Shown here one piece after another: positions 45,702-63,783 of a stretch of DNA of 64,000 nucleotides. Under the pieces are notes generated by a model that was not told the DNA's origin, did not search any database, and saw nothing but the letters and a program-made list of their open reading frames with translations. How positions within the stretch are numbered: the stretch's first letter is position 1; every line of letters starts with the position of its first letter. Location of the stretch: assembly GCA_046725285.1 (NCBI GenBank), contig JBKOYG010000047.1, forward strand, positions 1,024 through 65,023, given 5' to 3'. This DNA comes from Verrucomicrobiota bacterium (GTDB lineage Bacteria > Verrucomicrobiota > Verrucomicrobiia > Chthoniobacterales > UBA10450). The translations under genes and the position numbers were made by a program.

Positions 45702-45810
45702 AATGTGAGCTTATAGGTTGGCTTGTGTGGTCGCCGTTAATTTGAAGCCGTGACAAAACATGACAATCGAGCCAGCCGCAAGCGATCCGATCATACTTCT
45801 GTAGCAATTC

Positions 45811-45834
45811 TGTAGCGGCGGTCTATGACCGCCG
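45811..45834. repeat. Short REP hairpin TGTAGCGGCGGTCTATGACCGCCG
   Basis: GGCGGTC-tatg-GACCGCC. A near-identical copy lies at 56264-56287 (one loop difference). Confidence 0.65.
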
Positions 45835-45919
45835 AAACCTTGGCGAAGGCGAATGTCACCGAAATGACTCTCGCGTTTCGTTCGCGAAAGAGTTTAGTAC
45901 AGTTTCTTGTTCTCCTGCC

Positions 45920-48336: not shown

Positions 48337-48392
48337 AAACACGCCCCTCAACCAGGAAAGATTTTCCGGGTTTTCTTCCTAATTCTTCCTTC

Positions 48393-52887: not shown

Positions 52888-53964
52888 ATGATCAAAACAG
52901 TATGGCAGTTTTCGGCAGTGGCGGCGGCGGTGTTGGCAAGCATCGCGACAGGAACAGCAACAATGGCAGCGGAGCCGTTACCAGCTCCGGCGTCGGTCCA
53001 CGACGGCCAGCACGACTTCGATTTCGTGATCGGCACCTGGAAGTCGCACGTGCGTCGCTTGCAGAAGCCACTGACAGGATCAACATCCTGGATTGAAGGC
53101 GATGCCACGGTGTCGGTTCGAAAGATCTGGAACGGCCGCGGTAATCTGGAAGAGATTGAGCTCACAACGCCCGCGGGCCATCTGGAGGGACTGACGCTGC
53201 GCTTGTACGATCCACAAGCGCGCCAATGGAGACTCTACTGGGCAAATGCGGCTCAGGGCGTGCTGACCTCGCCCGTGTCGATCGGCGAGTTCAGAGACGG
53301 TCGCGGCGAGTTTTACGATCAGGAAACATTCGACGGCAAAATTATTCTGGTCAGGCACAGGTTTTCGGAAATCACGCCGAATTCGTATCACTTTGAACAA
53401 GCTTTTTCGGCGGACCGCGGCCAGACCTGGGAAGCGAATTGGATCGCGGACGTAACGCGCACGAGCGACGAGCCGATTGCCCCGTCACTCAGCGCGGAAG
53501 ATCGCAACCGCGATTTCGATTTCAACATCGGCCACTGGGACGTGGAGTTGAAACGTCTCACAAATCCGTTGAACGGTAACTCGAGGTGGACCGACTGGAA
53601 AGGCACGGGCGAGGTCGCGCCCGTATGGAACGGACGCGGAAGCGTCGCTCAGTTCGAGCTCGACGGGCCGACTGGTCATCTCCAGGGCGTCGGACTGCGT
53701 CTTTACAATCATGAAGCGAAACAATGGACAATCAGCTGGGCAAACAGTCGCAACGGCGCGATGGGCGTGCCCATCGTGGGCGAGTTCAAGGGCGGTCGCG
53801 GCGATTTCATCGACGCGGAGGAATTCAATGGCCGGCAGATTTTCGTGCGCAACAACTTCTCGAAGATCACCGCGGACTCCTGCTACTTCGAGCAGGCGTT
53901 CTCAGGCGATAACGGCCGGACCTGGGAAGCGAACTGGTTGATGACGTTCAAACGACGCAAATGA
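52888..53964 (+). CDS. Secreted protein made of two tandem ~165-aa DUF1579-like domains
   Basis: Each half has HDFDF.IG.W...L..PL.G...W....G...V..VWNGRG...E......GH..G..LRLY......W...WAN...G....P.VGEF..GRG.F.D.E.F.G...VR..FS.IT..S..FEQAFS.D.G.TWEANW. Confidence 0.6.
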   Translation: MIKTVWQFSAVAAAVLASIATGTATMAAEPLPAPASVHDGQHDFDFVIGTWKSHVRRLQKPLTGSTSWIEGDATVSVRKIWNGRGNLEEIELTTPAGHLEGLTLRLYDPQARQWRLYWANAAQGVLTSPVSIGEFRDGRGEFYDQETFDGKIILVRHRFSEITPNSYHFEQAFSADRGQTWEANWIADVTRTSDEPIAPSLSAEDRNRDFDFNIGHWDVELKRLTNPLNGNSRWTDWKGTGEVAPVWNGRGSVAQFELDGPTGHLQGVGLRLYNHEAKQWTISWANSRNGAMGVPIVGEFKGGRGDFIDAEEFNGRQIFVRNNFSKITADSCYFEQAFSGDNGRTWEANWLMTFKRRK

Positions 53965-54494
53965 TCCGTGGATTTTTGGGTTTGTTGCTGATCGTGAGCG
54001 CAGTCGGCGCGCTCGCGCAGGAAAACTCGAGTGGGCAACATGATTTCGATTGGGAATTTGGAACCTGGCACACACACCTGTGGAGACTGAAGCAGCCGTT
54101 GAGCGGGTCTAACGAATGGTTGGAGTACGACGGCACGACGGTCGTGCGAAAAATCTGGGACGGCCGCGCCAATTTGGTGGAACTGGAGGTCAACGGACCC
54201 GCTCACATCGAGGCGCTCAATCTGCGCCTGTATAATCCGGAGACGCACAAGTGGAGTTTGAATTTTGCGAGCAGCAAAACGGGCACGCTCGGCACGCCGA
54301 CGGTTGGCGAATTCAGTAACGGCCGGGGCGAATTTTACGATCAGGAGGATTTCAACGGACGCCCGGTCCTGGTGCGCTTCATTATCTCGGACATCAAACC
54401 AGAATCCTGCAAGTTCGAGCAATTTTTCTCGACTGACGGCGGCAAGACCTGGGAGGTAAATTGGATTGCGATCGACACGCGAGTGAACGAATAA
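53961..54494 (+). CDS. Single-domain paralogue of the 52888 protein (DUF1579-like)
   Basis: Same motif string (GQHDFDWEFGTWHTHL...WDGRANLVELEV...FEQFFSTDGGKTWEVNW). ATGA overlap with the upstream gene. Confidence 0.6.
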   Translation: MIRGFLGLLLIVSAVGALAQENSSGQHDFDWEFGTWHTHLWRLKQPLSGSNEWLEYDGTTVVRKIWDGRANLVELEVNGPAHIEALNLRLYNPETHKWSLNFASSKTGTLGTPTVGEFSNGRGEFYDQEDFNGRPVLVRFIISDIKPESCKFEQFFSTDGGKTWEVNWIAIDTRVNE

Positions 54495-55183: not shown

Positions 55184-55936
55184 ATGATCCGCAACACAAA
55201 CGGAAGCACCTCGAGGCTGGGCTGGAAATTCGCTCTCGACGTCACGTGCATTTTGCTTGCGCTGCCAGTTTGGTTGCCGGTGATGATCTTGCTCATGCTG
55301 ATAACACGATTCGCTTCGCCTGGTCCGATCTTCTATCGGCAGGAGCGGGTTGGTCTTGGAGGAAGGCCTTTCTTTATCTGGAAGTTCAGAACGATGCAGG
55401 AAAGTGCTGAGACACAAACTCACGAACATTACTTCCACGAATTGATGAGGGTCGATCGTCCAATGACGAAGCTGGATGCTTATGGCGATCCACGCCTCGC
55501 CCCTTTTGGCCGATTTCTGCGTGCGAGCGGCCTGGATGAGTTGCCGCAAATCTTCAACGTGCTTTGCGGCGAGATGAGTCTGGTTGGTCCGCGGCCCTGC
55601 ACACCAAATGAATTTGCTCATTACGAGCCGTGGCAACGGCAACGTGTAAATGGTCTGCCGGGGCTTACCGGACAATGGCAGGTAAACGGCAAGAATAAAA
55701 CGACGTTCAACGAGATGATCATGATGGATCTCTTCTACCTCGAGAACATGTCGATCTTACTCGATCTAAAAATTATGCTTAAGACCGGCGCCGTTATCGC
55801 CGGGCAACTCTTGGAATTTCAGCAGGCGACACGACGCTGTCGTTCCGGCGCAAACCATACACAGCTCGAAGCTGTAGTGACCAGCATCGTAGGCACTGCG
55901 ACCCAAACCGGATTCGAAACCGCATCGCCCGACTAA
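55184..55936 (+). CDS. Bacterial sugar transferase (polyprenyl-phosphate hexose-1-phosphate transferase, WbaP/EpsL-like)
   Basis: FALDVTCILLALPVWLPVMILLMLITRFASPGPIFYRQERVGLGGRPFFIWKFRTM, DELPQIFNVLCGEMSLVGPRP. Confidence 0.8.
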   Translation: MIRNTNGSTSRLGWKFALDVTCILLALPVWLPVMILLMLITRFASPGPIFYRQERVGLGGRPFFIWKFRTMQESAETQTHEHYFHELMRVDRPMTKLDAYGDPRLAPFGRFLRASGLDELPQIFNVLCGEMSLVGPRPCTPNEFAHYEPWQRQRVNGLPGLTGQWQVNGKNKTTFNEMIMMDLFYLENMSILLDLKIMLKTGAVIAGQLLEFQQATRRCRSGANHTQLEAVVTSIVGTATQTGFETASPD

Positions 55937-55962
55937 CGCAATGGAATCGTCCGGGTGCGATT

Positions 55963-56250
55963 CTACTTCGGCGGAACCGTTATCCAGCCGCCGACACCAA
56001 GCGCAGTCAGCACGATTTCCACTGCCAGCGAACAAAGGATGAGTCCCATTACACGGACAAGGACGGACGCGCCCTGCCGACCGATCACCCGCAGAATCGC
56101 ATCCGAAAAAAGCAGCAGGAGATAGGTCAGGAAGAGCACCACCAGAAGGACAACGCCAGTTTCGATCCGCTCCGGCACCGTATAAACATCGTTATCAGTT
56201 AAGACAATCACGGCCATCATCGCGCCCGGCCCGGCGATGACGGCCCGGCC
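55963..56250 (-). pseudogene. marC: marC (MarC/UPF0056 family) 3' fragment
   Basis: Reads ...AVIAGPGAMMAVIVLTDN...SVLVRVMGLILCSLAVEIVLTALG. There is no N-terminal half upstream, where a REP hairpin and hicBA follow instead. Confidence 0.7.
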
Positions 56251-56263
56251 CGAACATCTGTGC

Positions 56264-56287
56264 TGTAGCGGCGGTCTCTGACCGCCG
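56264..56287. repeat. Short REP hairpin TGTAGCGGCGGTCTCTGACCGCCG
   Basis: Near-identical to 45811-45834. Located exactly at the upstream break of the marC 3' fragment. Confidence 0.65.
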
Positions 56288-56324
56288 AAATGTCCGGCGA
56301 TCAGTCGCCATGCAGAGAATCTTC

Positions 56325-56562
56325 TCAGCCGAAGAGCCGCTGAATCAATTCGTCGCGACTAATTTCAAAATGCGCGGCCGCGTCGCCAAGAATTCCGGCC
56401 AGCGTTCCCACTTTAAGTGGATCTGGGAATCGTGACATGATGCTGCCCGCGCTCAGTGGTCGTCAGCCGCAGATGGCTGCCGGTTTGCCGCGTGACTTCG
56501 TAGCCCAAGCGCCCCAGCCGTTTGGCAAGATCCGCTCCCGAAATGTCTCTCGGCAATTTCAT
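56325..56562 (-). pseudogene. hicA: hicA toxin gene, frameshifted
   Basis: My translation from the ATG at 56562 gives MKLPRDISGADLAKRLGRLGYEVTRQTGSHLRLTTTERGQHHVTIPRST*. The +1 frame continues PDPLKVGTLAGILGDAAAHFEISRDELIQRLFG* (stop at 56325). The shift lies near 56415-56425. Confidence 0.7.
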
Positions 56563-56592
56563 CTTACCAACGAGAGCGGTGTCAACTGGCAC

Positions 56593-56799
56593 TCAGCCCG
56601 CAAGCACTTCGTCGCGGACAAAATGCAAACGAATCACCTTCGGGGCGTTTCCCTCATCGAAATGGCAATTCACAGCATCGCGAACCTGTTGCCGAAGCGT
56701 GTCCAAAGTGTCCGCCTCGGTAAAGATCGACTCACCCAAGGCTCGCGCCGTAAAGCCGCCTTCCGCCGCATCCTCGATCAAGAAAATAATTTCGTTCAT
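56593..56799 (-). CDS. hicB: HicB-like antitoxin (HicB_lk_antitox type)
   Basis: MNEIIFLIEDAAEGGFTARALGESIFTEADTLDTLRQQVRDAVNCHFDEGNAPKVIRLHFVRDEVL. Confidence 0.75.
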   Translation of the reverse strand: MNEIIFLIEDAAEGGFTARALGESIFTEADTLDTLRQQVRDAVNCHFDEGNAPKVIRLHFVRDEVLAG

Positions 56800-56898
56800 G
56801 CGTTGCGGGCCAAAAGCGTGTTTCAATTACGCCGAGAGTCTCTGCGATTCGGAGTTCATTGGCAAGAATTGTCGCAGTCCGTTGATTACCGCGTCGAG

Positions 56899-56981
56899 AA
56901 TCGAGCTGAGGGGGTCAGCGAGATAGAAGGTAAAGTCGCGAGGGTAGCGACGAGCGAGCTGGGCAGCGAACGAGTTTCAAT
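56899..56981 (+). repeat. Structured repeat, single A-type unit (locus 1)
   Basis: AATCGAGC-[GCTGA ggggg TCAGC]-GAGATAGAAGGTAAA-[GTCGC gagggta GCGAC]-GAGCGAGCTGGGCAGCGAACGAGTTTCAAT. Abuts the truncated marC 5' fragment. Confidence 0.8.
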
Positions 56982-57173
56982 GACCTGGCCAGCGGTCATG
57001 GCGGCCACGAGGATGATGGCGGCGTAAATCACAGCACGCAGCGCCGTCAGATGCCGCTCTGACCGGGTAAGCGCAGCGGTCAGCCCGGCAAACAACGCTA
57101 CGTTGCCAATTGGATCAATCGTCTTCCAAAGCGTCGCAAAATCCTTGCTGATTTTAATTAACAGAGGCGACAT
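56982..57173 (-). pseudogene. marC: marC 5' fragment a (codons 1-64), truncated by the repeat
   Basis: MSPLLIKISKDFATLWKTIDPIGNVALFAGLTAALTRSERHLTALRAVIYAAIILVAAMTAGQVI, after which the track ORF continues into repeat-derived sequence. Confidence 0.7.
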
Positions 57174-57367
57174 GGGTAAATGTGCGCTGTCGTTTTAAAC
57201 AAACCGCAGATCAAAGGCGAGACAAAGCTATGCGCGGCCGTTCGCGGATGGAACGCGTGAAATGATTTCTTTGGATTCAACGCTTTAACGATTCAATTCG
57301 CCGCTGGACGAATTCGCCGTGGCGGACGCGTTAACGATTCACCGAATCAAACTACGACAGTGGTGCG

Positions 57368-57616
57368 AATCGAGCTGAGGGGTTCAGCGACATAGAACAC
57401 GTCGCGATCGGGTATCGCGCGGGTAGACGGCAGCGCAGCTAGGTAGCTGGCGCAAGCACGGGGCCGTGCGAGTGATCAACGTAAAAGTGACGAGGGTAGG
57501 AGCGAGTGAGCGTGGGCAGCAAACGAGTTTCAATGGAGCGAGTGGGATGAGCGACATAGAAGGCAAAGCTGCGAGGGTAGCAGCGAGTAAGCGTGGGCAG
57601 CGAGCGAGTTTCAAAT
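57368..57616 (+). repeat. Structured repeat array (locus 2): B unit, C block, degenerate A, full A
   Basis: The B unit has GCTGA-ggggt-TCAGC (57374-57388). The C block 57415-57485 is about 90% identical to 61024-61096. The last A unit has GCTGC-gagggta-GCAGC (57568-57584). It ends in GAGTTTCAAAT, fused to codon 12 of a second marC 5' end. Confidence 0.8.
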
Positions 57617-57819
57617 CTTTGCTAATCTTGATCAAAAGCGGAGACATATGCCGGAGCGTGCGTTTTATCCTGATACGAACGAAGGATCAAGCACGAGCAA
57701 AGTTGGCGGTGTGAAATGGGCCATTGCTGACCTCAAAGAGATTATCGAGTTTCTCGCGGAAGATATGACCGACGAACGGCTTGTCTCTACCTGCGCGACA
57801 CCGCTACAATTTGGTTTCG

Positions 57820-58074
57820 ATGGGCAGAGCCGAGAAACTCGCCGCGAAGATTCTCAGTGGAAAATCAGACAAAAATTTTGCCTTCAACGATCTTTGTTAC
57901 ATTCTTGAGCGCGCTGGGTTCCAGCTGCGTCCCGGAAGAGGAAGTCATCGGATTTATTACAAAGAGGGAGTCATCGAAATCGTCAACATTCAACCTCGCG
58001 ACGGAAAAGCGAAACCGTATCAAGTAAAACAGGTGCGCGAACTGCTTTTAAAGTATAAGATCGACATCGAATGA
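57820..58074 (+). CDS. hicA: HicA-family toxin (YcfA-like)
   Basis: MGRAEKLAAKILSGKSDKNFAFNDLCYILERAGFQLRPGRGSHRIYYKEGVIEIVNIQP. 4-nt overlap with the downstream hicB. Confidence 0.7.
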   Translation: MGRAEKLAAKILSGKSDKNFAFNDLCYILERAGFQLRPGRGSHRIYYKEGVIEIVNIQPRDGKAKPYQVKQVRELLLKYKIDIE

Positions 58075-58283
58075 CGACGCGTTACGAACTGATCATTTAT
58101 TGGAGCAAAGAGGACGACAGTTTTGTCGTCGAAGTCCCGGAGCTACCCGGCTGCATGGCCGACGGCAAAACTTACGCCGAAGCCGTGAAGAACGCCGAGC
58201 AAATTATCGACGAATGGATCGAAACCGCGCGTAAACTTGGGCGCCCGATTCCCGAGCCGCGCGGCAAGCTCGCCTACGCCTGA
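58071..58283 (+). CDS. hicB: HicB-family antitoxin (short form)
   Basis: YELIIYWSKEDDSFVVEVPELPGCMADGKTYAEAVKNAEQIIDEWIETARKLGRPIPEP. Confidence 0.75.
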   Translation: MTTRYELIIYWSKEDDSFVVEVPELPGCMADGKTYAEAVKNAEQIIDEWIETARKLGRPIPEPRGKLAYA

Positions 58284-58349
58284 GATCTGCGTTTCATCGC
58301 CGATCACTTATCACTTCTTTCCGACCAACGCTTCAACGACCCGCTCGCG

Positions 58350-58433
58350 AATGGAGCCGAGGGGACACGAGCGACATAGATGGGCAAACCCGCCTAAGGC
58401 AGGTCGAAATGCGCGGGAGCGCATGAGTCAAAG
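58350..58433 (+). repeat. Degenerate unit of the structured repeat (locus 3)
   Basis: AATGGAGCCGAGGGGACACGAGCGACATAGATGGGCAAA... ends in GAGTCAAAG. It retains the 5' half and an ATGCGC-ggga-GCGCAT hairpin. Confidence 0.55.
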
Positions 58434-58604
58434 CTTTCGGAGTCAACCCTCAACAATCAACTCTCAACCATCAACTGCTTTAATGAAGAGAGACATGTGT
58501 CAGAAATGTCGCTCTAGATTTATACGAACGGTCAATCAATCGCGAGGCAGGGTTCGCCTAATTCCTACTTCTTAATTGGTATTTTTTACTTCTGACTTTC
58601 TTCT

Positions 58605-58637
58605 GGCCGCGGTTTCTTCGGATACAGGAAACGTTAA
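58605..58637 (+). other. Relic copy (R3) of the 3' end, including the stop, of the gene ending at 47326
   Basis: GGCCGCGGTTTCTTCGGATACAGGAAACGTTAA encodes GRGFFGYRKR*, versus RGFFGYQKR* at 47300-47326. It shares 20 exact nt with R2 (50642-50661). Confidence 0.7.
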
Positions 58638-58876
58638 AACGCAGATCAGCAAGTTCGCCCTGCTGGATTAAGCCTTCCTCGTTTTCGTCGAATGAAGCCA
58701 TAGACCATGCAAGGTTTGGGATCACCAACTCGACCATTAGCAAAGTGACGATCGGGCCAAATTCGGTCGAAATGGTGCGAAACCCCTCATGCCAATGAGA
58801 GTTTAATACGTGAATTACGGGGATTAACTGGGATGCACGGAGGGCCTGTCTAACCTTGATAGAAGGGGAATCGCAA

Positions 58877-60253
58877 ATGCGCGCTCTCGGCGCGACAGCC
58901 TGTACAGCGCACCCCAAGGTCTTAAAAAATATTGCAGAGCAGCTCGAGGAGCACAACGTCCTCTCCACTCAAGAGCTGCAAATTGCGCGGCGCATGGGGA
59001 TCGTCGCGACTACCCCCGTCGGGCGAGCCGGCTTTAATGACGGACTTCTTTTTCCGTACGAGCTCTTGAGCGGTGGACTTGGTTCGGCCTCGACTATTCC
59101 AGAAGCGGCGCTCGCTCCAGTCGAGCCGAAGAGACCGGAAAAACGAAAGGTGCACGCCATTGCACTGCTGGTCGATTTTTCTGACAACCGGGGAATGCAG
59201 CGGACGACGGATTTTCAGAACCTCCTCTTTGGCAAAGGGAACCCGAATTCCATGGCGAATTTTTACCGACAACTTTCCTACGGCGCGTTGGAGCTGACCG
59301 GGGAAGTAATCGGCTACGTGCGCGCGCCTCAGCCTTACAGCTATTACACAGCAGCCGAAAGCGGCACTGGAACCACTTATCCGCAAAACACGCCTGGGCT
59401 GCTCCATGACGCGCTGACGATTTTTTGTCGGAATGATAACCTGGCGCGTTTTGACACGGACAATGACGGGTTTGTAGATGCGATTTTTCTGATCCATGCT
59501 GGCAGAGGTGCGGAGGCGGAACCAAATCCCACGAAGCGAAAAAACATGATCTGGTCGCATAAGTGGACCCTTCCGCAGCCGTTCGTAAATCAGGGAGTCA
59601 AAGTATTTGCCTACTCCACCGAACCGGAAGACGGGCGCGTCGGTGTTTTTTCGCACGAATTCGGTCACCTACTTGGATTGCCCGACCTCTACGACACGAC
59701 GTTTCGATCTCATGGAATCGGTGATTGGTGCCTGATGGCAGGCGGGTCTTGGGGAGGCGAAGGAAATCGTCCCGCGCGAATGTCGTGTTGGTGTCTCTCG
59801 AAACTCGGTTGGATCAAGCCGACGGTGGTTACCAGAAAAGAATCGATTCAACTCAACACGCTGGAAGAAAAAAAGACCGAGTGCTATCGACTTTGGACAA
59901 AAGGAGCAACCGGGCCAGAATATTTCCTTCTCGAGAATCGCCAGGCCAAAGGGCTCGACGCCGCGCTTGCCGGTTCAGGCCTTGCCGTCTGGCATATCGA
60001 CGAGCGGCAATCAAACAATGACAGTCCGCTCGCCTATCTCGTGGCACTCTTACAGGCGGATGGAAACAAGGATCTGGAACTACTCAAGAATTCAGGCGAC
60101 GGCGGGGATCTTTTCCCTGGCGATAAATGTGTCGCGGCGGTTGACGACAATACTACGCCATCAACACGAGCAAATACGGGGGCTCCTTCAGGCGTAGCGC
60201 TTACCAATATCGCAATGAGTGGAGGTATCATGACCTTACAGGCAGAGGTCTAG
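58877..60253 (+). CDS. M6-family (immune inhibitor A-like) zinc metalloprotease domain protein
   Basis: HEFGHLLGLPDLYD zinc motif, preceded by ALLVDFSD, FYRQLSYG and FLIHAGRGAE. No obvious signal peptide. Confidence 0.7.
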   Translation: MRALGATACTAHPKVLKNIAEQLEEHNVLSTQELQIARRMGIVATTPVGRAGFNDGLLFPYELLSGGLGSASTIPEAALAPVEPKRPEKRKVHAIALLVDFSDNRGMQRTTDFQNLLFGKGNPNSMANFYRQLSYGALELTGEVIGYVRAPQPYSYYTAAESGTGTTYPQNTPGLLHDALTIFCRNDNLARFDTDNDGFVDAIFLIHAGRGAEAEPNPTKRKNMIWSHKWTLPQPFVNQGVKVFAYSTEPEDGRVGVFSHEFGHLLGLPDLYDTTFRSHGIGDWCLMAGGSWGGEGNRPARMSCWCLSKLGWIKPTVVTRKESIQLNTLEEKKTECYRLWTKGATGPEYFLLENRQAKGLDAALAGSGLAVWHIDERQSNNDSPLAYLVALLQADGNKDLELLKNSGDGGDLFPGDKCVAAVDDNTTPSTRANTGAPSGVALTNIAMSGGIMTLQAEV

Positions 60254-60260
60254 CTCCCAA

Positions 60261-60551
60261 TCAAGCCTGATCGGACAGGGGATCGAGTTGTTCGAGAACC
60301 GTACGCTCGCCGAACGGACCAGCCAGTAATCGCGCTTGCACACGAACGCGATCGCCTATCGTCACATCTGGCGCTTGGGCCGCAAATAGAATTAGGGACT
60401 GCCCCTCTGCGGGCTGGATAAAGTCGTCACTTCGGCCACGCGAGAGATTACGATACACTTCGATTTCGATCTCGTGTCCTTGACCCTCGCTTGCTGGCAC
60501 GATCGCTCGAACAGTGCCTTCAACCACCGTCTTATTTGGCTTCGCCAGCAT
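60261..60551 (-). CDS. Small hypothetical protein convergent with the M6 protease gene
   Basis: Clean ORF (the track gives 60261-60635; the ATG at 60551 gives 96 aa). No domain recognised. Confidence 0.35.
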   Translation of the reverse strand: MLAKPNKTVVEGTVRAIVPASEGQGHEIEIEVYRNLSRGRSDDFIQPAEGQSLILFAAQAPDVTIGDRVRVQARLLAGPFGERTVLEQLDPLSDQA

Positions 60552-60761
60552 ATTCAAAGCTAATCGCCCGCCCCTATGAACGTGACCGCGATACGCAAGC
60601 GATAAAAATTGCCGCTCACGGGCCGAGAATGACAAAGATCACATAAAGAGCGAGCTTTTATTCGCACGTCAACCCGGTTTGGTGGCAGCGCTCACCAGTA
60701 TCCCTTTCCCCTTACTTTCTACGGAAACAGCCAGGCGAAGTTTCGAAACCTCAATTTTTTT

Positions 60762-60818
60762 CAGAAAACGACCGGCCACTTTGAGCGAGTGCATGTGAAT
60801 GCCGATCGCGTCGAGAAT
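60762..60818 (-). pseudogene. marC: marC internal fragment
   Basis: The minus strand reads ILDAIGIHMHSLKVAGRFL. This matches the MarC region that follows GQ(L/V)(V/I) (E. coli ...[23 protein letters not shown]), i.e. the expected continuation of fragment a. It starts exactly at the end of repeat locus 4. Confidence 0.55.
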
Positions 60819-61110
60819 GGAGCAACTGGGGGGAGCGACATAGAAGGTAAAGTCGCGAGGGTAGCGACGAGCGAGCTGGGCAGCGAGCGAGTTTCAATGG
60901 AGCTGACGGGTTCAGCGACATAGAACACGTCACGATCAAGGGAATGGAGCTTTGGGGAAAGCGACATAGAAGGCAAAGCCGCAATGGGTAGCGGCGAGTG
61001 AAGTGGGAAGCGAACGAGTTTCAATCGCGCGGGTAGACTGCAACGCTGCTAGGGTAGCTGGCGCGAGCACGGGGTCGTGCGAGTGATCAACGTAAAGGAG
61101 CGAGTGCAGA
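60816..61110 (+). repeat. Structured repeat array (locus 4): A, B, A', C block
   Basis: A has GTCGC-gagggta-GCGAC (60852-60868). B has GCTGA-cgggt-TCAGC (60902-60916). A' has GCTTT-gggg-AAAGC (60949-60962) and GCCGC-aatgggta-GCGGC (60978-60995). C block at 61024-61096. Lies 56 nt from the stop of the nuclease-ATPase gene. Confidence 0.8.
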
Positions 61111-61165
61111 CGTGGACTACTTTGTGCTCACGGTGTAGCTGCACATACTTAGCGCATTCGTAGAC

Positions 61166-63609
61166 TTATACCCGCCGGCTTCTGGCGACGTTAGCTGCTG
61201 CACTTTGTTCAACCTTATCACATTCAGACAAACCCCTTGTGATTACGTTTTGGCACATCTGTTTCCCCTCTGCATCTGAGAGGTCATTGACACAAGTTCG
61301 TAAGTAATTCAGGAAGGCTCGAGTCCTAGCCAGTCTCTCGTCCAGAAGGGTCGTCTCAACAATTTTCGGCCGGACCGACGCATCCGTGATTGGCGTGTCG
61401 ATGCACATTGCATCCAAGTATTGAAACTCGGTGACCAAATTGTTGATATGGTAAGATCCGCGGGTAGTGATTCGAAGCGTGGACACCTTCATCTCGTCCT
61501 GAGTTACCGCAGAACTTGTTTCTAACGAGCCGTTTTCGACCAGAGTAGTTAGGTGCCTCTGGATTGTAGCAACGTCAAAGTAAAAAGACTCGAGATAAGA
61601 AGCGACAGCCATGTATGTGACCCAGTTGCCGGTCTCATGCTGATCGTGGAATCGGCTGAGATATTCAAGCATCAAAAGTCGAATGAAATGCTCCTTTGGG
61701 TCGGCATGGTAGATGTCGAAAAGATTAACAAAGATCGAAAACTTAGGGTCATACTGATCGTAGTCACCGTACAAAAGTGTTTTTACGGCTTCGAAGCTCG
61801 GCAGAAAATACGTGCCTGACTCTTTTATTTTGCCGAGTATTTTGCCCGTATCCAGATGGCCGCTTGTTAAAACGCGTTTCGTCAAATCGAGTAGCGTGCG
61901 GACGTTCCCGTTCGATATCGCCGCTAACATGTGGATAGCACTTGTATCTTTGCGAGCTGAAAATTCACAGCATGCGAAAATCTTAGCTACACTCGGAAGT
62001 CGAAAAGAAATATCCTTGTTCTTCATGGCGTCCTGAAGGACAGGCGTGTCGATTTCGCCAAGCGCAAGCTTTTGCGCAAACTTAAACCTTCGCTTAAGGA
62101 CAAGTGGCAGATCGGGAGAACCAATCGTGAACGTCTTCGGTGCAATTGAATCGAGAACGCCGCTGCGGAAAGACAGATAAAATGTTGTCGGCCTTAAACA
62201 AATGAACACCACGCACTCCCAATCGCGTGCAATCGCGGACGCCTTGAGAAAGGCTGCTTCTTGAATCGCGGGGTCGCGGCGATCTAAATTATCGAAAAAA
62301 CAGCAATCGAGCGTCCACGTCCGCGCTTCAGGTGTCGAATAACTGCTTGGTAATAGCTGTGACGATCCTTTAAGTGTTCCTGAATAAATGCCTTCTCCTC
62401 CTGTTTCGTTGCAGTGAGGTCGTCGCCATGAAGCTTGTACCTGGAACTACGATGAAATCGCTCAATTTGCGAATGAAGTGCGCCACGGACGATTGAGTCT
62501 TCGAGAATATCGATGTTGTGACGGTCGAGCAATTGAGCCTCAAGCTGGGCATATATAAAATCATTTACCTCCGCTGCGCTGTCGGGACGATCGAGGAAGT
62601 TTGCTTCGAGCTGTATGTAGCTCGACAGCGTGTCGCTTGCACCGACTAACCGGAGGTAATTCAAAAATGTCGTCTTACCTTGACCAACATCCCCTAGCAA
62701 GATAAAGGGCTTTTCGTTATCGTAGCCGATGATCGTGTTCGTTACCTGCCCTGTGTCGGCGCTCATCACATTTCTGGTCACAAGTTGGTCTGCCGCCGAG
62801 CGACGGCGTAACATATCCTTAGCGAATGCAATCAGGTGCTCGTTCGCTTGTGGAGACACATAGCATTTTTCCAAAAACAGAAGAGTATTCTCGGTCCGCG
62901 ACAGGATATCCCAGACTGTTTGTAGAATGTAAGAGAGTTCATTTATGAATCGGTTGCGCTCAGAAGTGATGGGATACCCGGGAATGCTCAAGCTGAGCTT
63001 TGCTGGTGCCGGCTTCTTTCGGCTCTCCATCAGCAGTGGATAAATCTCATTTGCTGCTACCGCAGTTTTGCTGAAGCACATCCAGTAACGACGGAAGTTG
63101 TCGCGAATCCTTGACAATGAGTCGAAGACGATGACCTCGCGTTCCTCGATGTTTTGTGATTGGACATATGTCAAAGCGATAATCCATTGATGTCCGTTTG
63201 AGATCGCTATGTACCGCGCTCCTAGTGACGCGGCGTAACCAAGCGCTTGCCGAAGTGCGGCACCTGATTCGGGTGTTTCTTTCTCAAGAAGGGCGAACGC
63301 GACTGGTTCTGGATCGAACACTATCTCCTGCACAACGAAGGAGATGTCCGCGCGCTTCGCTTCAACAACTAATGCAATGCTATTTGCAACGGAAAAGACG
63401 TAATCAGCGTATCCCACCGCTCGGCAATAGTGCTCTGCATCGACGTCAGTTTTTTCCCAATCCAACACGTCGAACAGCAAGACGTCCAATACTTTCAGTC
63501 GCGTGTCTGCTTCGTTAGCGCGATTCGACACTGCTGTTAGTTCGTCAAAACGATTCTGTAACTCTGCGAACGCAGCTTCGGGCGTCCAAGGAATAGTCCG
63601 AACAAGCAT
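61166..63609 (-). pseudogene. PD-(D/E)xK (HsdR-N/Mrr-like) nuclease domain + ORC/Cdc6-like AAA+ ATPase + winged-helix protein, interrupted by a frameshift in an A6/T6 run
   Basis: Nuclease motifs NEADTRLKVLDVLL...YADYVF...ALVVEAKR...YIAISNGHQW. Walker A LLGDVGQGKTTF. With one extra T at 62295-62300 the reading continues SIAVFFDNLDRRDPAIQEAAFLKASAIARDWECVVFICLRPTTF, which gives a Walker B and joins track ORFs 62284-63714 and 61166-62212. Sensor-2-like NGNVRTLLDL. Confidence 0.7.
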
Positions 63610-63783
63610 GGCTGCAATCGTACAGCCCAAGGGGCTCAACGAAAGTTTTTTCCTTCTCGTAAGTGTAACAGCATTTTCAGCTAAGAACCGCTGGAATCTG
63701 CACCGCTGTCGCAACCTCAGTGAAATTGCGTGTCGCAGCCGCCTTCATTCGGAACTGCCGGTGTTCGGGTGCAATCGACATAA

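Follow-up and report, generated by a model that had tools for sequence, protein, structure and literature searches.

Relics of marC, stacked gene starts and a small repeat element in a variable region of Chthoniobacterales genomes

The window analyzed here, i.e., a stretch of 64,000 nucleotides (nt) from a Verrucomicrobiota bacterium of the order Chthoniobacterales (assembly GCA_046725285.1, contig JBKOYG010000047.1), contains the gene marC in pieces that lie next to copies of a short repeat, which we call element E. The locus is a variable, repeat-rich region upstream of marC that is found in many Candidatus (Ca.) Udaeobacter/Chthoniobacterales genomes, and in this strain the last marC copy was destroyed. 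It is best explained by incoming DNA that repeatedly displaced the marC 5' end, accompanied by insertions of E and by recombination between E copies and concluded here by a final deletion; we assign a probability of roughly 0.6 to this explanation. Taken as a whole, the locus represents ordinary gene decay, in which a small mobile repeat and recombination left a pseudogene plus relics, and a known kind of event. An earlier note on the window had described the shattered gene and lacked its main context, which is a recurrent hotspot with stacked gene starts.

Pieces of marC in the window

The region from 55.5 to 61.5 kilobases (kb) was read and its open reading frames (ORFs) were listed. A composite of the putative marC pieces matched more than 1,600 MarC-family proteins, the best of them ~209 amino acids long, with ~75-79% identity over the composite, and originating from soil metagenomes and Chthoniobacterales. 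An intact homologue of 209 amino acids, P0001, served as tblastn query against the window, and six intact homologues were aligned with the pieces, resulting in the following remains:

57173-56979, minus strand: marC fragment a, amino acids 1-65 (tblastn with P0001, 94% identity)
reaching to ~57370, minus strand: upstream region of fragment a, a-type allele
57615-57715, minus strand: marC fragment b together with its own b-type upstream region; codons 1-11 at 57647-57615 (tblastn with P0001, amino acids 1-11, 100% identity), upstream region at 57648-57715
60818-60771, minus strand: orphan (internal) marC piece, amino acids 65-80 (tblastn with P0001, 100% identity); marC part taken as 60772-60818, with E on its 5' side and an illegitimate junction into a cargo module on its 3' side
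56890-56901, minus strand: 12-nt marC remnant, codons 65-68, reading ATTCTCGACGCG on the minus strand, followed by an illegitimate junction to a hicBA module
55963-56238, minus strand: marC 3' fragment, codons 119-208 plus stop codon, own start codon and promoter absent (tblastn with P0001, amino acids 119-208 at 56238-55969, 93% identity)

The description of marC as lying in four pieces including two 5' ends, as given in the earlier note, was borne out by this search (93-100% identity). For marC residues 81-118, tblastn with P0001 returned no match anywhere in the 64-kb window. The Pfam profile MarC (PF01914) was matched by fragment a (profile positions 4-59, E-value 3e-11) and by the 3' fragment (profile positions 120-199, E-value 7e-14), i.e., on separate pieces and not by one uninterrupted ORF of ~200-210 amino acids spanning the whole profile as expected for a functional copy. 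No working marC is left in the window, and an exact-protein look-up of the fragment-a ORF gave no match. For annotation, the remains are better entered as one pseudogene plus relics rather than as several short MarC proteins.

Two boundaries drawn in the earlier note had to be shifted. The piece given as 60818-60762 is a real continuation of marC, but it stops at codon 80 (60772), and the 'RFL' quoted as its end belongs to the neighbouring module, which is continuous in the related loci L131 and L086. Similarly, the 3' part given as 55963-56250 matches marC up to 56238, whereas the marC origin of 56239-56250 is doubtful. Other observations were confirmed as they stood. Fragments a and b both start with MSPLLIKISKD, encoded with 8 synonymous differences between them, and their upstream regions are homologous across ~65-70 nt in the alignment. 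The 12-mer CGCGTCGAGAAT (plus strand) precedes a repeat copy at 56890-56901 and, identically, at 60807-60818 (repeat family D6).

Copies of E are confined to 56.9-61.1 kb of the window, where they are accompanied by related repeats and by a separate small hairpin of the repetitive extragenic palindromic (REP) type:

56901-56978, plus strand: E1, at marC codon 65, with AA at 56899-56900 and at 56979-56980 (nhmmer E-value 7e-17)
57370-57531, plus strand: E_long1, E variant with an internal insert of ~88 nt (split nhmmer match, profile positions 3-46 and 32-79)
57534-57612, plus strand: E2, abutting fragment b at codon 11/12 (nhmmer E-value 4e-20)
58352-58432, plus strand: 'fam3', with first hairpin and AGCGACATAGA box in common with E and another 3' half (pattern match at 58370)
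60818-60895, plus strand: E3, adjoining the orphan marC piece (nhmmer E-value 1.5e-18)
60898-61117, plus strand: E_long2, interrupted by a nested E4 (60945-61022, nhmmer), 3' end degenerate
56263-56290, no strand assigned: GTAG-tagged REP hairpin, CTGTAG-CGGCGGTC-TCT-GACCGCCG-AAA, beside the 5' break of the 3' fragment

The pieces had been described as each broken exactly at a repeat, which holds for three of the six ends. Fragment a stops at E on its 3' side (codon 65) and so does fragment b (codon 11/12), and the orphan piece has E at its 5' end (codon 65). The other three ends do not lie at E and are illegitimate junctions: codon 80 of the orphan piece on its 3' side, the 12-mer where it stops at 56890, and the 5' break of the 3' fragment. 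At codon 80 marC runs with ~1 nt of overlap into the middle of a stretch that is uninterrupted in L131 and L086. The 12-mer and the upstream region of hicB overlap by ~2 nt at their junction, and the 3' fragment starts ~25 nt from the 28-nt GTAG-type hairpin. The two repeat junctions at which a and b are cut lie at ATT/ATTT as reported earlier, which fits the general target of E, i.e., S-AA on the left and W on the right of the insertion point on the element strand.

A region full of 80-nt repeats might be mis-joined during assembly in a manner that mimics a shattered gene. This is highly improbable as an explanation of the locus, given an independent contig, L125 (DASTZG010000544.1), a 3.8-kb contig of an independent short-read metagenome-assembled genome (MAG; GCA_035764465.1) that was reached through the look-up of an identical HicB protein. 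It aligns with positions 55983-59672 at 99.49% identity in a single ungapped alignment of 3,690 columns and confirms the order of 3' fragment, hicBA, 12-mer, repeat, fragment a, two repeats, fragment b, hicAB and peptidase. Being colinear at 99.5%, it shows that 55983-59672 is not misassembled and that this order exists in a second, slightly different strain (0.5% divergent). Moreover, the E copies are distinct enough to be told apart, and the same kinds of junction occur in dozens of unrelated assemblies. On the other side, one contig of the comparison, L023, ends inside a marC duplication, and 59.7-61.2 kb of the window is covered by this assembly alone, although the module of peptidase and 124-amino-acid ORF (ORF124) is colinear with L131 and L086 up to 60772-60774. 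In both the window strain and L125 the terminal marC copy is without promoter and without its first 118 codons. Below 55983, ~20 nt upstream of the marC stop codon, the similarity is lost (L125 1-102 against window 55881-55982), and therefore the DNA downstream of marC also differs between these close strains.

Stacked starts in relatives and the history of the locus

For comparison, 80 marC loci from soil metagenomes and loci from a genome scan, designated by L numbers, were annotated for marC pieces and E copies. At least two marC starts were found in 18 of 90 loci; without exception they point in one direction and precede the main copy. Most stacked starts keep their own upstream region and few are truncated, as an example the second fragment in L114. 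The stacked fragments end after 11, 19/20, 24, 30, 34, 49, 64 or 65 codons, and many of these ends are without a repeat. Within one locus the stacked starts represent different alleles, so that a-, b- and c-type starts co-occur. The b-type start with its upstream region is 89-91% identical to the start of a working marC in L205, L186, L139, L135 and L133, and the a-type start with its upstream region is equally close to the working start in L130, L134, L143, L152 and L173. As a and b are each a working allele elsewhere, two alleles were brought together in the window rather than one having been duplicated in place long ago. The modules between the starts, in the following called cargo, stand in different orders in different genomes.

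Relic arrays that arise by sequential displacement were described for Rhs (rearrangement hotspot) and Vibrio cholerae type VI secretion system (T6SS) effector-immunity loci, for which homology-facilitated illegitimate recombination was proposed (PMC5361080). The marC locus resembles these arrays in that marC represents the conserved homologous anchor beside a variable region, and in that incoming modules push the gene end aside, resulting in orphan fragments of the same orientation, in different alleles and in illegitimate junctions. Three features expected of a displacement array were found, i.e., same-orientation fragments (the 18 of 90 loci), foreign alleles, and outer junctions with an overlap of 1 nt (codon 80) or ~2 nt (12-mer/hicB). 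In contrast to the Rhs and T6SS arrays, in which the 3' toxin end is displaced, marC has its 5' end and promoter displaced, it encodes an ordinary membrane protein whose relics are without evident benefit, a small mobile repeat adds breakpoints, and the last marC copy is dead in this strain.

The contribution of E can be seen at three positions of the marC 5' region, i.e., codon 11/12, codon 65 and a point 5 nt before the ATG, at which E recurs in many lineages. Simple insertions 5 nt before the ATG are present in L020 and L204, and L114 carries a simple insertion at codon 11/12, the left junction of which is shared by L086, L128/129, L149, L153, L164, L170, L175 and the window; the relic consisting of 11 codons plus E is widely common among lineages. 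At codon 65, E is missing from nearly all intact genes, but it is inserted there in L177, the window, L023 and L077. In L177 (6001-6714) E is inserted at codon 65 of an otherwise undecayed full-length marC with exactly 81 nt, so that the frame is kept with one in-frame TGA. The lengths of E insertions vary (78-79 nt + 2), and a tolerated in-frame insert is not supported. In L023 a near-identical tandem duplication has its junction after the same 12-mer as in the window, which can be ascribed to an 8-nt microhomology, TCGACGCG, common to codons 66-68 and the natural upstream region.

The proposal that recombination between repeat copies reshuffled the locus gained support from relatives. One and the same E copy is joined to codon 11/12 on the left and to the position 5 nt before the ATG on the right in L128, L164, L170 and L175. 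Such hybrid junctions are expected if, in a stack resembling that of L114, the DNA between two direct E copies was deleted. Furthermore, the E copies at the marC locus are mosaics of hairpin modules. In three of these loci (L128 4699-4830, L164 5348-5480, L170 401-530) the 11-codon start plus E lies 5 nt before an intact marC, with a possible upstream ORF of ~45 codons ending just inside marC. This arrangement is conserved in several lineages and may therefore be a co-opted leader, i.e., an upstream ORF plus a structured RNA, controlling marC.

In the displacement history that we favor, E inserts at S-AA/W sites and breaks marC. Incoming DNA from other lineages would bring cargo, such as toxin-antitoxin pairs and a peptidase, along with a promoter region and a marC start of its own. 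Of its two ends, one would recombine within the conserved marC body and the other would join illegitimately, and therefore the former 5' end would be displaced upstream and persist there in truncated form. The DNA between direct E copies would be deleted or re-joined when these recombine. Applied to the window, the first relic would be E plus codons 65-80; it would have lost its first 65 codons through recombination with an upstream E array, and an illegitimate junction with the ORF124-M6 module would end it at codon 80. The second relic would be the b-type 11-codon start plus E, and the third the a-type codons 1-65 plus E plus codons 65-68, joined illegitimately to the hicBA module. Finally, the last copy would have been reduced to codons 119-208 by a deletion beside the REP hairpin. 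The order of events, the mechanism of one-sided homology and the role of transformation are what we infer by analogy to the known arrays.

Stacked 5' ends with their own upstream regions and with cargo modules between them might also result from integrative elements that use the marC 5' end as attachment site, carry a replacement 5' end and accrete in tandem. The cargo, which includes defence-type and toxin-antitoxin genes, and the codon-19/20 junction common to L114 and L131 would agree with such islands. However, the fragments are 11-65 codons long, which speaks against a fixed attachment core and is not what defines an island, some of the 'islands' comprise just 0-150 nt (L131, L128), and Pfam revealed no integrase, recombinase or transposase in the window ORFs tested (ORFs of at least 150 amino acids at 44.9-54.5 kb, the two large ORFs at 61.2-63.7 kb and the ORFs of the locus) or in the genes around marC in L001-L003. 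We therefore regard integrative islands as quite improbable. An integron array was rejected as well. The locus resembles an integron cassette array by its small modules (toxin-antitoxin etc.) with structured repeats between them and a fixed gene beside them; it differs in that no integrase was found by Pfam in the ORFs tested, in that the modules stand in mixed orientations with their own upstream regions, and in that the ends of E do not fit the attC cores RYYYAAC/GTTRRRY.

The earlier note had alternatively suggested that marC pieces travel with the element, in which case E copies elsewhere should have marC fragments beside them. The 12-nt marC remnant beside E at two places in the window would fit, but these 12-mers lie <4 kb apart and both at the marC locus, and among ~175 distinct E sites in >200 loci marC-derived flanks were confined to marC loci. 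This largely refutes the transport of marC by E, to which we concede next to no likelihood.

Several points weigh against the displacement history. All of its steps are inferred and several event orders fit the data. Independent assembly support stops at 59672, so that the part around the first relic (59.7-61.2 kb) depends on this assembly. E1 and E3 are 88.5% identical with the same hairpins 2 and 3, whereas hairpin 1 differs in 8 of 21 nt, and with a common flank and common hairpins 2-3 an extra conversion event is needed to account for the different hairpin 1. The filled site in L177 suggests at least one recent insertion at codon 65. A transposase able to move E was not found among the ORFs and loci searched. 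Moreover, E is present at exactly the same three sites, in one orientation and mostly with one type of hairpin 1, which site-specific targeting would explain as well.

Structure, target and spread of element E

A profile of E (nhmmer) was built from repeat copies found in the genome scan, with one genome per species. E was found in at least 120 stretches, nearly all of them from Ca. Udaeobacter, Chthoniobacterales or 'Spartobacteria' soil MAGs, and viral contigs yielded just 2 matches. The element is 79 nt long (TGGAGC...GAGTTTC), and its ends are not reverse complements of each other, i.e., terminal inverted repeats are absent. It encodes nothing and therefore is non-autonomous. An autonomous parent, recognisable as an ORF between a left and a right end of E, was not present among the fetched loci. 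The literature search found no description of E, so that the family is apparently undescribed, and Rfam gave no match for the whole window at gathering thresholds nor for 56.2-61.3 kb at E-values up to 1.

At 175 unique sites E is flanked by S-A-A on the left (G/C 77%/18%, A 99%, A 99%) and by A-A-W on the right, i.e., A-A-(A or T). At codon 65 the intact marC reads GAG-AA-TGAC, which represents the empty site, and filled sites have AA at both sides. Read from these letters, the two AA would reflect either a 2-nt duplication or an element ending in CAA that inserts after S-AA. A target duplication of 6-9 nt, which the likeness of the flanks had prompted, was rejected, as the empty marC site shows a duplication of 2-3 nt only; the similarity of the flanks is due to short tandem motifs occurring in targets.

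E folds into three hairpins with G-rich loops. This structure is supported by covariation among 40 diverse copies, in which 82.8% of the cells are paired compared to 70.4% in shuffles, with 0 of 500 shuffles reaching the observed pairing, 15-41% pairing in slid controls and 79 cells with double changes compared to 30 in shuffles. Hairpin 1 (positions 5-19) and hairpin 3 (positions 57-75) are both supported by covariation. The structure tested was a hand-drawn three-hairpin model with explicit controls, because RNAalifold alone recovered just part of it. A CRISPR-like (clustered regularly interspaced short palindromic repeats) reading of ATTGAAAC was discarded, as spacer periodicity is absent and the copies are clean insertions.

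E nests in two related repeats, the long variant and 'fam3', and forms head-to-tail arrays. Homologues of E_long1 are present in many loci, and in other genomes this variant (noted in the window at 57398-57483) time and again carries a nested E, always at one position. Nested arrangements like that of E_long2/E4 were found in L037, L046, L082, L116, L118, L119 and L120, and E is nested inside 'fam3', which shares just the first third of E, in L007, L010, L043, L045, L078, L081, L084, L088 and L113.

By these properties E resembles non-autonomous derivatives of insertion sequences of the IS200/IS605 group (palindrome-associated transposable elements) and miniature inverted-repeat transposable elements (MITEs), being small, multi-copy and non-coding with precise ends and with empty and filled sites. 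With classical MITEs it would also share a short target duplication, if the AA on both sides is one, but these have terminal inverted repeats, which E has not. Like IS200/IS605 derivatives, E has hairpins near both ends without inverted repeats, is inserted in nested and head-to-tail fashion, and has a short fixed target by its left end (S-AA) that resembles what may be read as its own right end (C-AA). It differs from them by its three hairpins with G-rich loops and by its variable, exchangeable hairpin 1, and the parent element and an HUH transposase were not identified among the fetched loci. E can also be likened to the pneumococcal BOX and the enterobacterial REP sequences and bacterial interspersed mosaic elements (BIMEs), which are short hairpin modules, mostly intergenic, sometimes tandem, and mosaic; it has no known sequence similarity to these, another module layout and clean insertion junctions inside a gene. 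With 79 nt, three hairpins and no GTAG tag, E is not one of the RAYT-mobilised REP/REPIN sequences, which are defined by a single palindrome of 20-40 nt with a GTAG tag.

The 28-nt hairpin at 56263-56290 in contrast meets the definition of a REP. A second copy lies at 45810-45837, just past a methyltransferase gene (family D18, 96% identical, loop T(C/A)T), and similar CTGTAG... hairpins are located beside many E copies in other genomes. A class of GTAG-tagged REPs was reported from Verrucomicrobia (PMC3733652). Both window hairpins resemble it by the GTAG tag, a stem of 8 bp and a loop of 3 nt, a likeness that is limited to the 28-nt hairpin and excludes the 79-nt E.

The earlier note had also raised marC-type genes as a preferred target of the element. 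E, or an enzyme mobilising it, might recognise the marC 5' region, so that many independent insertions occurred and the fragments are by-products of these hits and of recombination between E copies. For such homing speaks that E recurs at the three marC sites across many lineages, always in one orientation and mostly as copies of one hairpin-1 type, and that L177 carries E at codon 65 of an otherwise intact gene. Moreover, the 320 nt upstream of marC contain E at a density ~12 times that of the remainder of these loci, although this remainder is mostly coding DNA. Genome-wide, the mutual information between hairpin-1 type and flank type is 0.31 compared to a null maximum of 0.17, but orthologous copies and composite repeats, which were not fully removed, inflate this value as well as the site counts. 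Against homing, the target logo consists of S-AA-W only and the three marC sites otherwise share no sequence, many fragment ends are without E, and at codon 65 E copies are 80-82% identical compared to 73-86% for the flanking marC, as expected of inherited copies. The recurrence of the sites and the upstream density thus stand, but descent and recombination of a few old insertions explain them equally well or better, and we consider homing unlikely. With still less likelihood, E might represent a new class of element in which hairpin 1 acts as exchangeable targeting module and the marC 5' region as homing site, or, as a related idea, the relic of 11 codons plus E might be the co-opted leader mentioned above. 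Hairpin 1 as a base-pairing guide was rejected, as neither complementarity nor identity with the flanks was seen. Successive displacement together with a few E insertions and recombination between them hence stays the explanation that we prefer.

As to the contexts of the hairpin-1 types among the ~175 E sites (loci L002-L207), E copies of the GCGAAT type are found in purine-rich GAAGTAAGAA contexts, those of the GCTGAT type near AATCTG motifs and those of the GCTGAG type at marC. The repeat family D1, a 34-nt pyrimidine-rich intergenic motif whose other strand is purine-rich (GAAGTAAGAAGG...), is present in the window at 48375, 51270, 54521, 54542, 58554 and 58568. In other genomes motifs of this kind directly precede start codons and represent a favoured context of one E subfamily.

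Neighbouring genes and meaning for Ca. Udaeobacter

The modules that surround the marC relics in the window are:

56325-56826, minus strand: hicB-hicA toxin-antitoxin module, in place of marC codons 69-118; Pfam HicA_toxin; hicA apparently frameshifted
57781-58283, plus strand: second toxin-antitoxin module, hicA-hicB; Pfam HicA_toxin and HicB_lk_antitox; the same HicB on other contigs
58707-60771, no strand assigned: cargo module with M6 metallopeptidase (58877-60253, plus strand) and 124-amino-acid ORF (60261-60635, minus strand)

The first module is ~85% identical to hicBA modules upstream of an intact marC in L136, L138, L145, L146 and L190 and upstream of marC fragments in L086. Its hicA (56325-56592) seems to be split, with 59 amino acids in one frame and the conserved C-terminal part in another, and L125 likewise is without a called hicA. 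The cargo module is 89.5% identical over 2,070 nt to L131, where it lies upstream of an intact marC. The M6 metallopeptidase was identified by Pfam (Peptidase_M6, E-value 3e-30), and its exact-protein look-up was without match. Downstream of marC a sugar transferase (Pfam) is encoded, a synteny that is native in several lineages.

Further outward, 61166-63714 contains two adjacent ORFs of 348 and 476 amino acids on the minus strand, for which Pfam and PADLOC gave no match. The 476-amino-acid ORF contains a P-loop-like GDVGQGKT motif. Both ORFs are located at the outer boundary of the variable region, a place taken by defence-type genes in relatives. On the other side, 52888-54494 (repeat families D4 and D12) comprises three successive units of ~500 nt with stretches of 67-78% identity, which suggests tandem paralogues, one of them with a weak match to DUF1579.

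Ca. Udaeobacter belongs to the most abundant soil bacteria. To our knowledge it has no cultured representative, and therefore its genome dynamics can be read from sequence only. For the biology of marC itself, the locus represents ordinary gene loss. For the group, E is an apparently undescribed and common element that breaks genes, nests in itself and provides portable homology for deletions, and it is worth masking or modelling in the assembly and binning of these genomes. The region upstream of marC represents a hotspot at which lineages exchange toxin-antitoxin, defence-type and other modules, and its stacked gene starts are a fossil record of successive DNA acquisitions.

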